From positions 13,541 to 77,540 of the IMG/VR virus record IMGVR_UViG_3300029305_004519: 64,000 nt of DNA. The stretch is one strand, 5' to 3'. The translations under genes and the position numbers were made by a program. Under the pieces are notes generated by a model. It saw only the letters and a program-made list of their open reading frames with translations, was not told the DNA's origin and made no database searches. Below, one piece after another: positions 11,045 through 15,983 of the stretch. Every line of letters starts with the position of its first letter. The first letter of the stretch is position 1. The stretch comes from a virus.

Positions 11045-11896
11045 TTAATCAAAGATTAGCTCTTTTGCATAAGGTAAAGTCTGCACCCATTCAAGAAAGC
11101 TATGCCATTCAGAGAGCTTATGTCCCATGCGCTGATGAGCCATGCTACGAAGATTCTCATAATTCATAGTCACTGTGCGGGTTTGGAGCCAACCATTAGG
11201 GAGCCAACGGATAAGTTCTTTCCAATAGCGTTTATCTTTTGTTTCAAGATACTTTTGACGAAGAGCTTCGAGATCTTCAATTAAGTCTTCTGCAAAGGCA
11301 CCTACTGGCATATCAACAGTAGCAGCTTCTTCAACATTAGGATAAGGATATGTGATAGAATCATCATAATCATCAGTCTCAAAGCAATCAAGCGTAATCG
11401 GCGTAAAAGCCAACTTGTGCATTGTACTAGTTGAGTTTGCCGTAGTTCCTATCTTGTAGGTGTCGAATTCTTTCCACCAATAGAGGGGAGCAGTAATGTC
11501 AACAGACACCATAATCTGACGTAAAAACTTACGATGTTCTGGACCTCCGTTTATAAGTCTACGACAAAGATCCATATCATTAGGTCCGATTAGATCAAGA
11601 GTATAGTGATGGTCTGTACCAATTAAAGCAGCCCCTTGTTGCCAGAGCCAGGTATATTTAGCATCAGAAATTTTATCAAACTCTTTATTGTAGTCTTCTT
11701 CTGTTGCAAAAGTGGCATTTTGCAGTTCATATTCTGCCCAAGCATTTGCGACATCATATACATCTTCAGAAATTGAATCTTCATATTCGCACCAAATTCC
11801 AAATTTACTATCGCTTTTCGCCCAGCTATTCATGGGGTTACGCATACCTCTTAGCGCGCCTTCAAAATTCATCACAGCAGTGTTTTCAAATTTCAT
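11045..11896 (-). CDS. ThyX-like (flavin-dependent thymidylate synthase fold) protein that lacks the RHR motif
   Basis: C-terminal region ...NLRSMAHQRMGHKLSEW aligns with ThyX ...NLRADSHAQWEIQ. At the expected RHR position it has ...KEFDTYKIG. Confidence 0.5.
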   Translation of the reverse strand: MKFENTAVMNFEGALRGMRNPMNSWAKSDSKFGIWCEYEDSISEDVYDVANAWAEYELQNATFATEEDYNKEFDKISDAKYTWLWQQGAALIGTDHHYTLDLIGPNDMDLCRRLINGGPEHRKFLRQIMVSVDITAPLYWWKEFDTYKIGTTANSTSTMHKLAFTPITLDCFETDDYDDSITYPYPNVEEAATVDMPVGAFAEDLIEDLEALRQKYLETKDKRYWKELIRWLPNGWLQTRTVTMNYENLRSMAHQRMGHKLSEWHSFLEWVQTLPYAKELIFD

Positions 11897-12083
11897 TTTC
11901 TTTATTTACCTTTCTATTCCATAATTCTATTGCATCTCTGCAATCTACTTTTGCTTCATCATAGTCAGCCGCCTCATAATAACAATGAGAGCATTGTACC
12001 ACCCAATAAGGACGCTGACCTCCCTCATCTCCTACCTAAATAGGACGAGCTGCATGATGGCATTTTGGACACATAGCTAACAT
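11886..12083 (-). CDS. Small zinc-ribbon protein with one in-frame TAG
   Basis: Hand translation gives MLAMCPKCHHAARPI[TAG]VGDEGGQRPYWVVQCSHCYYEAADYDEAKVDCRDAIELWNRKVNKENEI, then TGA. RBS GGAGGA upstream. Confidence 0.5.
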
Positions 12084-12362
12084 TATTCTTCATCCTCCTC
12101 TATTCCATCTTTATATTTCTTTTTAAGTTTCTTTAAATAGCGAATTGCATCGTCAAAAGAGTCTTCATAGGTCTCATGCTCGAATTCGCCGCTATCTTCC
12201 CATTCAAGAGAGATTTCAATTCTTGTTACTTTCATTATTTAATTCCTCAATTTTTATTTTAAAACAAGTATGACATACAAAATCTAAACAATCGTTCCAA
12301 GACCAAAACTCTTTTTCTTCAATGTCGCCGATTTCATCTGTCCATTCTAGTTTAATATACAT

Positions 12363-13556
12363 TTAGCTATTCCCGCGAGTTTTATTCAGGCCAAAATCAT
12401 ATGTTTGATAGAGGTCGATATAAAACTTCTCCTTTTCATTTAATTCATTGATACTACATTTTTCTAATACTTCAAAAGTAAAGTTATCAATACCTTTTTC
12501 TCTTGTGAATGCATAGAGTTGACTTGTTACAGGGGTGTCGATACCCAAGCTACATTTAACATGCGTTACCCAACGCTCTTTGATATCTTTAGCTTGTCCG
12601 ATGTATGATATGCCAGAGTCAATGTGGGTAATTTTATATATTCCACTTGCGCCCACCGCACCTACGCGCGCCGCAAGGTCATTGACTTTATCTCTATAGA
12701 ATGTAGACCATATAAGCATTCGCAAAGGTCTTGCCTCACGCAAATTATATTCAATGCTTTGAAGATATGCAACATCCCGTTTATCAGCTTCATTAATTTG
12801 AAGGGTATAAAATGTCGCTTGATTTTTAATTTCTTCTTCACGGAGTTGTGCCTCCATTGCGGCGGCCTTAGTTGCACGAATTTTTTCTAGCTCTTCACGA
12901 ATTGAATCTAAATCAGCGCGCATTGCCGCCTCTTCTTCTTGCAGCTCTTTAGACATTGATTGTTGCTTATCATAAAAGAGTTTTACAAGAATATCTAAAT
13001 CTTGACGCTGTTCTTCGATTAAACCATTTTCTCTAGCATCTAATTCTAACATTCTAGTGAAATAAAGCTCATCTAGCTTTGCGATGTCATTATTAAACTC
13101 CTGTTCTCGCTTTTGATATTCATAATCAAGAGTATCACAATATTGCTCAAATGAGGTGCGAGCAGCTGCCTTTAAACTACCTGACATCTCATCTATTGAG
13201 CGATTTAAAGTGGCGATTTGCGCCTCCACTCCTGCTTTTTCAATTTGCTTATTTTGAATTTCATTTATTAACAATAATTTCTATTGAGTTAATTGATTTA
13301 ATTCGTCATAAGAATTTTTTGTTTTTTTACAGTTCTCTTCATACTTTTGAGAAATTTCATTGTTAGATTTTATCAATAAGTCATTTTGAGCTTCTAGGCT
13401 TTTGCGAGTTGCATGTAATGACTAATTAAGCTCTTCCAGTTTCTAATTTTCTTCTGCTACATAGTGATTTGCTTTTATAGTTGTGGCTTTAGCCCATATT
13501 CCGTAAGCAAGGCCGCCTACGCCAAGAAGAATTGATATTACACATATGATTATCAT
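12363..13556 (-). CDS. GIY-YIG endonuclease with N-terminal TM/coiled-coil region and three in-frame TAG codons
   Basis: C-terminal GIYKITHIDSGISYIGQAKDIKERW (GIY-YIG). Reading up from the ORF-track start, the frame stays open through TAGs: MIIICVISILLGVGGLAYGIWAKATTIKANHYVAEEN[TAG]KLEELN[TAG]SLHATRKS...LNQLTQ[TAG]KLLLINEIQNK. Total 398 codons. Confidence 0.5.
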
Positions 13557-13860: not shown

Positions 13861-14185
13861 TGCCTTAAATCTCCTTTTATTTCTTAATATTTAGCAGTAT
13901 TTATCTCTGCTATCGTAGTAATATAATTATATAATAAAATTTATTTATTGTCAAGAAGATTCTTATTATAGATATAGTCCTCAATAGCAAACATCTCAAT
14001 CATTGTGCAACTTTCAATGATGTTAGTCATTTCCTCTTCTGCTGCAGATTTATCAATGCCTGCTTTGATTTGCTTTTCAAGTTCTACAATGCGCTTGATT
14101 TTTGGCACAAGGCGCTTGTGCATTGCTTTGCGTTGCTCCCTATTCATAGGTGCATCTGCTTTTTCCGTTATGTTGTAATTTGCTT

Positions 14186-15019
14186 TCATTTCATTAACTC
14201 CAATAATTCTTCTTCAGTAATAATCGGAATGCCAAGTTCCTTTGCTTTAAGATTCTTTGATGATGTACTATCAATATCATTATTGACGAGATAATCAGTT
14301 TTTGAAGAGACCGATGATGTTACTTTACCACCTGCGGCGGTCACTGCTGCAGAAAGTTCATCTCGGTTTTTCCAGATGTGGACTCGACCTGTAACGCAAA
14401 AGGTTTTACCCTCAAGCGCATTTCCAGAATTTTCCAGCGCGCTTTCATTTGTTTTAAAGGTAATAATCCCCTTTTCTACAAGGCTATCTGCTTCCGTATA
14501 GTCAAAGCTTAAAATCGCATCTGCTTTCTCTGGTCCAATACCATCAAGCGACTCAAAATCAAAGCCATTCGCAACAGCATTTCTAAATTCTTCATAAGTT
14601 TCAAAAGTATTTGCAAGTTTCTGCGCATAGGTCTTACCTATAAGCGGAATGCTAATTGCGCTTAAATACTGTGCAAGAGTAGTCTCGCGTGCTTTCCATA
14701 TAGAGTCAATGAGCTTAGTTACGCTTTTAGGTCCGAAACCAGGCTTACTAGCCCAGAGATCAGCTACTTCACCGAGTGCGCAAATATCGCTTATAGAAGA
14801 TACCCAGCCCCAGTCGATAAGTTTCTCTAAAGTTGCTTTAGACAAGCCTTTAATATCAAGACCTTTCTTTGATACAAAATGTTCTAATTTGTTAATCAAT
14901 TTTCCACTGCAATCAGGATTATTACAAAATAATTCTTGTGTGCCGCTATCGCTCGTTTTGATAATTGTATTTCCGCCGCAAATAGGACAAGTCTTTGGTA
15001 TTTCAATCCATTCAATCAT
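14186..15019 (-). CDS. ligA: NAD-dependent DNA ligase, C-terminal half (Zn finger, HhH, BRCT)
   Basis: CPICGG...CNNPDC zinc finger, HhH region, then BRCT-like GKTFCVTGRV...ELGIPIITEEELLELMK. Own RBS and ATG. Confidence 0.8.
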   Translation of the reverse strand: MIEWIEIPKTCPICGGNTIIKTSDSGTQELFCNNPDCSGKLINKLEHFVSKKGLDIKGLSKATLEKLIDWGWVSSISDICALGEVADLWASKPGFGPKSVTKLIDSIWKARETTLAQYLSAISIPLIGKTYAQKLANTFETYEEFRNAVANGFDFESLDGIGPEKADAILSFDYTEADSLVEKGIITFKTNESALENSGNALEGKTFCVTGRVHIWKNRDELSAAVTAAGGKVTSSVSSKTDYLVNNDIDSTSSKNLKAKELGIPIITEEELLELMK

Positions 15020-15983
15020 ATTTTCTTTCCTTTTTTACAATAAATTTACTTTTATTAATATCTAAATCTTCTAAGGTTAATTGTTCAAGATGAGTATAAG
15101 GAATTCTAATTAATATAATATTATTATCCATACACCATTTATTCTTAAAAAGATCTCGAGCATTAGTTTTTTGAAATTGCTCTTCTGCGACTTTTTTAGA
15201 TATGCCTCCAAATTGTCGAGGAGTAAAATGCTGTTCCCCATCATATTCAATTAAATATTTATTTTCAACAAAAAAATCATAATATAAATGATAATTCGTA
15301 TCTGGGTAAACACAAGTATCAAAAGTTTTCTATTTTTCAAAAGTAATATTATTTTCTTTTAAAAGTTTTTCAATACAGTATTCTCCTTTTGATTTTCCTA
15401 AGCACCCACAAGAAGAAGTGTGACCTCGTCTAAGATTTAACGTTGAAACTTGGATTTTATTATGATCAGGACATGAGCATTCACATAGCCACATAATTCT
15501 ACCATTTGGATCACGTTCTTCCATTTTTTCTATAACTGTTAATTTACCAAAATGGGATCCAACAAGATTTAATGCTCTTTGTTCTCCCAATTTCTTCATG
15601 CGCTCTTTGGTAATACAACCACAAGATTTAGTACCTCCATTTTCTCCTTTTTTCAGCTAATCAGTTGGTACTTTAGTAATATTTCCACAATCACACTAAC
15701 ATTCCCATATCATACATCTTTTAGGGGTTTTTTCTCCAGTTGGACGTAAAGCCACTAATCGTCCGAATCTTTGCCCTGTTAAATCTTCAAATTTAGGTTC
15801 ATGTTTTTTACATCCACAAGAAGTTACTCGCTTTGCATTTAATTCTCCAGAAGTTACTTCTTTTTGATTTCCACACTAACATTGACAAAGCCAAACAACA
15901 GCTCCCCCTTTTCGTTTGTCTGTTTTTTCAATTACTGTTAAATAACCAAACTACTCTCCAATTAAATTTTTACAAGCTGGCAT
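15012..15983 (-). CDS. Homing endonuclease (Zn-ribbon repeats plus Vsr-like/DUF559 nuclease domain) with five in-frame TAG codons, inserted inside ligA
   Basis: RBS AAGGAGAAAAG and ATG at 15983. Frame open for 324 codons through TAGs at GE*FGY, QC*CGN, EC*CDC, TD*LKK and FEK*KTF. C-terminus has YDFFVENKYLIEYDGEQHF...ARDLFKNKW...ILIRIPY (DUF559/Vsr-like). Ends with TGA overlapping the ligA-C ATG. Confidence 0.5.

Follow-up and report, generated by a model that had tools for sequence, protein, structure and literature searches.

A 64,000-nucleotide stretch of viral DNA (positions 13,541 to 77,540 of the IMG/VR record IMGVR_UViG_3300029305_004519; hereafter the window, numbered from its first letter) very probably belongs to a phage that reads UAG as glutamine (genetic code 15) by means of its own tRNA with a CUA anticodon, tRNA(CUA), and whose NAD-dependent DNA ligase gene is split by a free-standing homing endonuclease. 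The source is a large, uncultured phage, probably of 110-180 kb, that is rich in tRNAs and whose replication module is SPbeta-like (YorF/YorH-type). It could not be placed in any named clade (Lak, crAss and Agate among them). A megablast search of GenBank phages with 11000-20000 gave no match, and the best tblastn match of its topoisomerase II large subunit (GyrB-like; 19928-21826) among GenBank phages has 35% protein identity.

A TAG-marked translation of 11500-16500 places ten in-frame TAG codons on the minus strand between 11886 and 15983, spread over four genes: a Zn-ribbon gene (one TAG), a transmembrane/coiled-coil/GIY-YIG gene (three), a winged helix-turn-helix (wHTH)-like gene (one) and the endonuclease gene embedded in the ligase gene (five). 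An earlier reading by a model, made from the letters alone (the sequence-only reading), had given the same counts for each gene, and was also right that TAA, TGA and frameshifts are absent from the four frames, that these genes terminate only with TGA (Zn-ribbon and endonuclease genes) or TAA (GIY-YIG and wHTH genes), and that the repeat motifs WLCQC[TAG]CGN, WEC[TAG]CDCGN and WLCECSCPDHN are present exactly as it quoted them. It had described five consecutive TAG genes; there are four, and they are interleaved with four TAG-free genes (12083-12235, 12216-12362, 13941-14189 and the C-terminal half of the ligase gene, 14186-15019), which makes four of eight genes in the flagged 4.1 kb that carry the ten TAGs. 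Counted over both strands and all frames, 1486 of the 7263 stop triplets of the window (about 20%) are TAG; by our own arithmetic the probability that ten of ten in-frame stops would all be TAG is about 1e-7, and a rough estimate from base composition gives a 323-codon frame without TAA or TGA a chance probability of about 1e-7. The TAG-bearing frames avoid TAA and TGA over as many as 397 codons.

Gene models were made under four stop sets with a home-made codon-usage caller that uses interval scheduling, not with Prodigal or Codetta. The highest score was obtained with TAG as a sense codon (7872, coverage 0.816), compared with code 11 (7628, coverage 0.775), TGA as sense (7208, coverage 0.749) and TAA as sense (7349, coverage 0.816), so that the coverage of the TAG-sense model was matched only by a lower-scoring run; the comparison with code 11 that the sequence-only reading had suggested thus favours TAG as sense. 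The TAG-sense model consists of 109 genes that terminate with TAA (80) or TGA (29), and none requires a TAG stop. Three other measures were uninformative: stop-to-stop open reading frame (ORF) totals under the different stop sets did not discriminate among codes, because removing any stop makes ORFs longer; a test for coding signal in windows flanking stops recovered seven sites and was too strict where TAGs are closely spaced; and the list of all code-11 ORFs ending in TAG was dominated by non-coding frames.

Across 90 well-scoring genes of the window there are 33 TAG, 349 CAA and 184 CAG codons, TAG being 5.8% of Gln-type codons. Beyond the flagged region, TAG is found in a RecJ-like gene (1973-3766, codon 18), an AAA_24 (Sak4-like) gene (8325-9359, codons 10 and 13), a virion protein gene (26365-27144, codon 92), a gene at 53287-54093 (codon 26), a plus-strand gene at 56208-56672 (three TAGs) and the plus-strand gene of a conserved helix-turn-helix (HTH) protein (57616-58413), in which ten of 14 Gln-type codons (71%) are TAG (Fisher p = 9e-11), the strongest TAG dependence in the window. 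Three of the 33 TAGs lie in a 5' extension (about 116 codons) of the primase ORF 4340-5794 (minus strand), which was rejected as coding; since orthologs start at about residue 111-121 of this ORF, the extension is probably non-coding or a separate small gene. The large replication genes without TAG are those of the two topoisomerase II subunits, the DnaB-like helicase and both ligase parts, and the YorF-like gene.

The putative decoder of UAG is a suppressor tRNA at 22478-22553 (minus strand; Rfam tRNA, 48 bits), the only one with a CUA anticodon among the 25 tRNAs that ARAGORN finds in the window. It is nearest to the window's own tRNA-Gln(UUG) (72% identity), and is presumably 78% identical to E. 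coli tRNA-Gln. It has G73, G2:C71, G3:C70, an A1/A72 mismatch that leaves 1:72 unpaired, and an encoded CCA; G73, G2:C71, G3:C70 and an unpaired 1:72 are identity features for glutaminyl-tRNA synthetase in E. coli. The gene is set apart from the main tRNA array, and a promoter-like TTGATT-17-TATAAT (22597-22569; a consensus match only) ends 15 nt upstream of it. The glutamine route of the host would presumably charge this tRNA, which would compete with release factor 1 of the host to insert Gln at UAG, and only UAA and UGA would remain as terminators. ARAGORN by default labels a tRNA with a CUA anticodon as tRNA-Pyl; this label was rejected on the grounds of a canonical architecture (an ordinary cloverleaf with GG in the D-loop and a TTCGAAT T-loop), as compared with the unusual architecture of tRNA-Pyl, the likeness to tRNA-Gln, and the fact that no pyl genes were noticed.

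Besides tRNA(CUA) and stop usage, the reading of TAG as Gln, already proposed from the letters alone, is backed by homology across the TAGs and by exchange of TAG with CAA and CAG among independently assembled relatives. These include L011 (ERZ27297665), L012 and L013, close relatives with 77-93% nucleotide identity to the window; L009 (ENA ERZ28575057), a more distant, TAG-recoded relative on a 176-kb contig; and L001 (IMGVR_UViG_3300028832_000101) and L002 (IMGVR_UViG_3300028887_001665), distant syntenic relatives with 55-72% protein identity to the window. Other copies of the endonuclease gene are found in L003 and L004 (two separate ENA assemblies, 91% identical) and in L005 and L006 (80% identical). 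At codons 11, 36, 96, 109 and 218 of this gene, the window has TAG throughout and no TAG elsewhere; L003 and L004 have TAG at the first four and CAA at codon 218, with other TAGs at codons 34 and 251, which are CAA/CAG in the window; and L005 and L006 have CAA, CAA, CAA, TCT and CAA, with no other TAGs. The Gln at position 251, TAG-encoded in L003 and L004, is found in 56 of 56 homologs in one alignment (A1), and a broader alignment of 69 sequences (A2) has it in 90% or more. Similarly, L011 and L013 have TAG at codon 199 of the GIY-YIG gene, where the window has CAA, and keep the TAGs at codons 38, 45 and 92 unchanged; codon 16 of the Zn-ribbon gene, a TAG in the window, is a CAG in L011; codon 29 of the wHTH gene is TAG in the window, GAA in L011 and GAG in L013; and the AAA_24 TAGs at codons 10 and 13 are kept in L011.

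At the protein level, homology continues across every TAG, and the segments on either side are not unrelated genes. Full-length homologs were found for the endonuclease, the GIY-YIG protein and the HTH protein with ten TAGs, and a single PHROG 559 match extends over residues 32-312 of the endonuclease, across four of its TAGs. The L001 and L002 orthologs of the RecJ-like (Gln at residue 18), AAA_24 (Gln/Lys at residues 10/13), wHTH (Glu at residue 29) and GIY-YIG (Asp at residue 92) proteins continue in alignment across the TAGs of the window. In alignment A1, Gln ranks first, by itself or in a tie, at two of the five endonuclease TAG columns and second at a third. Among the homologs of the HTH protein, the share of Gln at the ten TAG columns is 34%, compared with a background of 4.2% (about 8-fold); two of these columns are almost invariant Gln, and homologs sourced only from JGI agree.

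Several observations speak against the assignment, or at least against its completeness. Some TAGs align with Glu, Lys, Arg, Ser or Asp in relatives, which is expected at variable polar sites and is no proof of Gln. The Gln signal in the alignments is partly circular, because some database homologs (for example, P0001) were themselves translated with code 15; the DNA-level comparison of codons in L003-L006, L011 and L013 is free of this circularity. Four short genes (949-1185, 50182-50337, 60206-60391 and 62389-62808) have a TAG near the 3' end that might be their true stop, and thus occasional termination at TAG is possible. Finally, the window has no release-factor gene with a GGQ motif and no obvious tRNA-synthetase gene, GGQ being the only motif searched. 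Judged from comparative data and tRNA features, Gln is by far the best assignment.

The endonuclease (15012-15983, minus strand; 323 aa; stop TGA) has its TAGs at codons 11, 36, 96, 109 and 218 (15951-53, 15876-78, 15696-98, 15657-59 and 15330-32, respectively). It lies between an N-terminal piece of the NAD-dependent DNA ligase (15970-17103, minus strand; 377 aa, no TAG) with adenylation and OB domains (Pfam DNA_ligase_aden, E = 8e-42; DNA_ligase_OB, E = 7e-14) and a C-terminal piece (14186-15019, minus strand; 277 aa, no TAG) with Zn-finger, HhH and BRCT domains (Pfam HHH_5 and BRCT, E of about 7e-13 each). Its ORF overlaps the stop of the former by 14 nt and the start of the latter by 8 nt, each of the three ORFs having its own start and stop, and the ligase is thus predicted to be made now as two polypeptides from three overlapping ORFs. 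A promoter-like site (17161-17133) and a terminator-like hairpin (17189-17165) are located upstream of the N-terminal piece. An intact single ligase of 640-655 aa without the endonuclease is encoded in L001, L002, L011, L012 and L013, and alignment of the ligases puts the insertion point in the linker that joins the OB and Zn-finger domains. The ligase gene is split at this point in the window, in L003-L006, in the TAG-recoded L009 and L010, and in L007 and L008, which represent an unrelated phage with a PolIII-alpha gene.

The endonuclease and its surroundings are 91% identical at the nucleotide level to L003 and L004 over a putative co-conversion tract (14961-16221, minus strand) comprising the endonuclease along with flanking ligase sequence, about 240 nt upstream and at least 50 nt downstream. 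Identity with L003 ends at 16221, the rest of the L003 ligase N-terminal part being divergent. In L011, which is genome-wide the closer relative, no nucleotide alignment was reported across the ligase junction (E <= 1e-20). An Rfam search of 13500-17300 gave no intron family at E <= 1 (introns of an undescribed class would escape such a search), and because no Rfam intron surrounds the endonuclease, it was not interpreted as part of a group I intron. Instead, the arrangement is what is normally seen where a free-standing homing endonuclease is accompanied by a co-conversion tract; cleavage of the endonuclease-less allele would be its predicted activity. Of the three homing endonucleases counted in the sequence-only reading, this is the only one that can be demonstrated as such: the Zn-ribbon and wHTH proteins are not endonucleases, and the GIY-YIG gene does not behave like a mobile one.

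The endonuclease is predicted to consist of three Cys-rich, Zn-ribbon-like repeats followed by a Vsr-like nuclease domain of the PD-(D/E)xK type. It matches PHROG 374 in three repeats (E = 4e-51) and has more than 7000 homologs of the same architecture, some of which carry PF10881, but it has no match in Pfam even at E <= 5, and its sequence has no meaningful match in the PDB. An AlphaFold model of P0002, a homolog with 80% identity (69-sequence alignment, mean pLDDT 90), shows an alpha/beta domain preceded by three repeats that are rich in beta structure and contain Cys; the only confident Foldseek matches of the alpha/beta domain are to E. coli Vsr (1cw0_A and 1vsr; probability 1.00, target-normalised TM-score about 0.54). 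The DUF559 domain of the sequence-only reading therefore holds at the level of fold or superfamily and not of Pfam family, since PF04480 was not matched at E <= 0.01 or at E <= 5; in hidden Markov model searches of the TAG-spanning translations, GIY-YIG (PF01541) was recovered and DUF559 was not. The residues D236, E246, D248 and H252 are invariant in alignments A1 and A2 and, together with Q251, form the motif DF...IEYDGEQH. A Vsr-like homing endonuclease, I-Bth0305I, is already known. The C-terminal fold is shared with the Vsr/DUF559/DUF2726 branch of the PD-(D/E)xK nucleases, but Vsr has nothing that corresponds to the three Cys-rich repeats of the N-terminal half.

TAG is unevenly distributed among Gln-type codons: it makes up 10 of 49 in the flagged region and 23 of 517 elsewhere in the window (Fisher p = 2e-4), and most of the regional enrichment is due to the endonuclease (5 of 15; Fisher p = 0.001). 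In L009, the ligase endonuclease has six TAGs, a GIY-YIG endonuclease that splits gyrB has six, and the ortholog of the transmembrane/GIY-YIG gene has three, as opposed to none in the GyrA-like topoisomerase, the ligase pieces, the helicase, AAA_24 and YorF, and one in the C-terminal piece of GyrB. When the window, L009, L011 and L013 are pooled, TAG makes up 19% of Gln-type codons in endonucleases and 4.7% in other genes (p = 8e-7), a comparison of eight endonuclease genes that are phylogenetically non-independent.

The arrangement suggests a role in timing. The suppressor tRNA would accumulate after infection, and until then ribosomes would stop at endonuclease codon 11 and at early TAGs elsewhere. 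Because its first TAG is at codon 11, the endonuclease would not be made before enough suppressor tRNA is present, and the flanking ligase pieces, with ribosome-binding sites of their own, would be made regardless. Translation of the endonuclease would thus most likely be uncoupled from, and later than, that of its host ligase operon. Two features detract from such a role: individual endonucleases vary in TAG content between 0 and 40%, and promoter calls are no more frequent than in shuffled sequence.

Whether the TAGs were selected for this effect is a separate matter. The recoding may be real and the high TAG density passive, a result of ancestry in heavily recoded phages, of relaxed constraint or of mutational bias, and we regard this as an evenly balanced prospect. 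Two of the eight endonucleases are TAG-free (LAGLIDADG in L009 and GIY-YIG in L011) and two of those in L013 have one TAG each; core replication genes also have N-terminal TAGs (RecJ-like, codon 18; AAA_24, codons 10 and 13); and codon usage may be imported, as the endonuclease family moves between phages. Passive density is harder to reconcile with the ratio of TAG to CAG, which is 5:1 in the endonuclease and 33:184 in the window, and with two CAA/TAG double changes among 15 conserved Gln codons between endonuclease copies that differ by 8% in nucleotides, which exceed a rough neutral expectation; these two features lean toward selection without proving it. It is also at odds with the recoding of the transmembrane/GIY-YIG gene both in TAG lineages (window, L009, L011 and L013) and in the TGA lineage L002, and with the delay of endonuclease translation by other means in T4-type phages (PMC2988022).

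A tentative proposal, which we consider rather doubtful, is that TAG codons serve selfish endonucleases, and a small number of further genes, as an adaptive "code lock". A ligase-targeting endonuclease family that moves between phages would then repeatedly have changed conserved CAA codons for Gln to TAG after entering code-15 phages. TAG stands at endonuclease positions 11 and 218 both in the window and in the 54%-identical copy of L009, where the 80%-identical copy of L005 has CAA. If there were such a lock, the nuclease would be translated only after the suppressor tRNA builds up, sparing early ligase expression and phage DNA; the element would be disabled after a jump into a standard-code or TGA-recoded sister phage; and the divergence of codes between sister phages would hinder selfish elements from spreading.

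With respect to the amino acid inserted, read-through of UAG with Glu (by a non-discriminating glutamyl-tRNA synthetase and failed amidation), Lys or pyrrolysine is improbable. The Pyl label that ARAGORN gives to tRNA(CUA) and the alignment of several TAGs with Glu or Lys in relatives would agree with it; many Firmicutes form Gln-tRNA by an indirect route, and the SPbeta-like genes hint at a Firmicute host. However, TAG is swapped with CAA and CAG in orthologs that are 80-93% identical, one TAG stands at a Gln that is invariant in 56 homologs, and Gln is about 8-fold enriched at TAG columns, while pyrrolysine is disfavoured by an ordinary, tRNA-Gln-like tRNA and by the lack of any pyl genes noticed. 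Moreover, Gln was found by proteomics in other code-15 phages (PMC9523058).

Still less probable is a standard code under which nonsense mutations have inactivated the TAG-bearing ORFs, making them pseudogenes or selfish genes in decay. Homing endonuclease genes often decay, and code 11 breaks each TAG gene into pieces, but the interruptions are solely TAG, never TAA or TGA, without frameshifts; the TAG positions are kept across diverged relatives whose proteins are 85-93% identical over their full length; and TAG is also found in core genes (RecJ-like, AAA_24 and virion protein) of a phage that encodes the cognate suppressor tRNA and none of whose predicted genes requires a TAG stop. The comparative data thus effectively refute pseudogenisation, in line with the sequence-only reading, which had argued against pseudogenes and frameshifts alike. 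Nothing found speaks for sequencing or assembly error of this contig, which is scarcely credible: in contigs assembled independently from other samples, the endonuclease TAGs recur in ERZ24773409 and ERZ28614354, the GIY-YIG TAGs in ERZ27297665, ERZ28633344 and ERZ28436081, and the AAA_24 TAGs in ERZ27297665; the same TAG positions and the exchange of TAG with CAA and CAG in independently assembled relatives exclude both error and pseudogenisation.

Stop-codon-recoded phages that use code 15 were reportedly described by Ivanova et al. in 2014. This phage shares with code-15 phages the in-frame TAGs in conserved genes, a tRNA(CUA) predicted to carry Gln, termination only at TAA and TGA, replication genes that are mostly TAG-free, and close relatives on another code (L001 and L002, TGA as Trp); unlike them, its lineage has no close phage relative in GenBank. 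It is established that phages can recode TAG to Gln and encode suppressor tRNAs, that their replication genes can stay compatible with the standard code, and that close relatives can differ in code (Borges et al., doi 10.1101/2021.08.26.457843; Babkin et al. 2023, PMC10607447), and Peters et al. 2022 report proteomic proof of TAG as Gln (PMC9523058). Borges et al. described an intron endonuclease in an early gene of Agate phages that is preferentially recoded with TGA and predicted to be made only late (doi 10.1101/2021.08.26.457843); the endonuclease of the window differs in being free-standing, ligase-splitting and recoded with TAG. Thus, the novelty is much lower than the sequence-only reading implied, recoding having been published even for an endonuclease in an early gene (Borges et al.), and what is specific here is the lack of a close GenBank relative, the TAG codon, and a free-standing, Vsr-like endonuclease that splits an NAD-dependent ligase.

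The splitting of genes by free-standing endonucleases ("genes in pieces") also has precedents, namely mobE in nrdA of Aeromonas phage Aeh1 and seg in gene 43 of phage 25 (PMC2988022). Features in common are an endonuclease ORF that divides an essential early gene at a domain boundary and overlaps the flanking ORFs at its start and stop, polymorphism of presence and absence among relatives, and a flanking tract that travels with the endonuclease. The differences are in the target, here an NAD-dependent ligase, and in the nuclease, which is Vsr-like with Zn-ribbon-like repeats rather than HNH or a GIY-YIG of the Seg/Mob type. In T4, endonucleases on early transcripts are translated late (PMC2988022), but through sequestration of the ribosome-binding site in RNA structure, in contrast to the dependence on suppressor tRNA proposed here. 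The homing endonuclease and a membrane-anchored, nuclease-like protein are the most recoded in the replication region, in keeping with the published suggestion that potentially harmful proteins are translated later as a result of recoding. The split ligase, along with close relatives that lack the endonuclease, constitutes a simple system for testing this idea, and opens no new question.

The membrane-anchored protein is the product of the transmembrane/coiled-coil/GIY-YIG gene (12363-13556, minus strand; 397 aa; stop TAA), which has TAGs at codons 38, 45 and 92 (13443-45, 13422-24 and 13281-83). It has an N-terminal hydrophobic helix, a coiled coil of about 250 aa, and a C-terminal GIY-YIG domain at residues 304-385 (PF01541, E = 8e-8; also PHROG 7168, 314 and 5123). 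The protein has more than 1200 homologs, the closest being mostly about 397 aa long; some copies sourced from JGI are 288-303 aa, near the 303 aa of the window's code-11 ORF. The gene is syntenic, with the same N-terminal helix, in five of the five relatives examined (L001, L002, L009, L011 and L013), and in this respect it is unlike a mobile endonuclease. A mobile GIY-YIG homing endonuclease was considered for 12363-13556 and rejected, because the distribution is not sporadic and the catalytic domain is C-terminal instead of being at the usual N-terminal position. Thus, the gene is probably not a mobile homing endonuclease, and our guess is that it encodes a membrane-tethered nuclease.

The wHTH-like gene (13609-13860, minus strand; 83 aa; PHROG 142, E = 2e-5; stop TAA) has its TAG at codon 29 (13774-13776); its codon 15 is TAG in L013 and AGA in the window. 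Upstream of it is a sigma-70-type promoter-like site with a 12/12 consensus (TTGACA-17-TATAAT; 13926-13954, minus strand), a consensus match only, in a region where such sites do not outnumber those in shuffled controls, and directly after its stop is a 12-bp palindromic hairpin (13567-13595) that is terminator-like on both strands. The gene thus resembles an isolated, strongly expressed, stand-alone transcription unit, yet it needs TAG read-through at codon 29. Between it and the C-terminal part of the ligase is a TAG-free gene of 82 aa (13941-14189, minus strand; 87-88% identical to its orthologs in L011 and L013).

The Zn-ribbon gene (11886-12083, minus strand; 65 aa; TAG at codon 16, 12036-12038; stop TGA) matches PHROG 599 (E = 6e-4) and has a 91%-identical ortholog in L011. 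Its weak resemblance to the restriction-alleviation protein Lar (PF14354, Lar_restr_allev; 19.6 bits, cut-off 28.6) was insufficient for assignment to that family. Two small TAG-free genes (12083-12235 and 12216-12362, minus strand) separate it from the GIY-YIG gene. An accessory island of about six small genes (10428-12362), which includes the Zn-ribbon gene and a 283-aa gene of PHROG 6721, lies between the YorF-like and GIY-YIG genes; it is absent from L001 and L002, and parts of it are present in L009, L011 and L013.

The two distant syntenic relatives, L001 and L002 (GC content 28-29%), use TGA as a sense codon and end their genes in TAA or TAG. Their sense TGA (L001, 1512-2333, minus strand; L002, 9583-10512 and about 16180) aligns with Trp at two positions of the GIY-YIG protein, where the window and L001 have Trp, with Phe at two positions of the ortholog of 53287-54093, and with Gly at one position of the RecJ-like protein; the TGAs of L002 are located in the ortholog of the window's TAG-bearing transmembrane/GIY-YIG gene. 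One clade therefore holds both TAG- and TGA-recoded members, which adds a further lineage whose sister phages have reassigned different stops. Under code 11 the TAG genes come out split or truncated, and translation table 15 is advised for this contig and its relatives, with table 4 for L001 and L002. In L007, one of 30 genes has a TAG stop.

Other genes of the relatives also appear to be interrupted. In L009, a gyrB-like subunit (3707-6353) is split by the 307-aa GIY-YIG endonuclease with six in-frame TAGs, a second recoded endonuclease in an early gene. The AAA_24 (Sak4-like) gene is intact in the window (8325-9359) and apparently interrupted in L013 (13688-15855), where a LAGLIDADG ORF follows a 38-aa N-terminal fragment, and in L011 (11076-13099), where there is an uncalled gap of about 1 kb. 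The homologs of the HTH protein of 57616-58413 form about 200 clusters, located on phage contigs of 100-150 kb, and a copy from JGI bears the name of an Lrp-family regulator; the gene could be that of a regulator gated by the suppressor tRNA.

The window also has a full-length ROOL RNA (RF03087, 175 bits, model positions 1-574 of 574) at 40474-41088 (minus strand), inside the tRNA array 40122-51365. Rfam recognises an extra tRNA at 44291-44363 (minus strand) that was missed by ARAGORN and has, by eye, the anticodon GTC (Asp) and an odd T-arm, and the ARAGORN tRNAs for Tyr (47081-47167) and Arg(TCT) (51288-51365), both on the minus strand, fall below the Rfam threshold; several tRNAs are unusually long (85-95 nt). 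Genes of an RNA ligase (27244-28434), a sigma-factor-like protein (28560-29480) and a nicotinamide phosphoribosyltransferase-like protein (35348-36538, minus strand), together with that of the NAD-dependent ligase, hint at tRNA repair, NAD salvage and transcription control by the phage itself.

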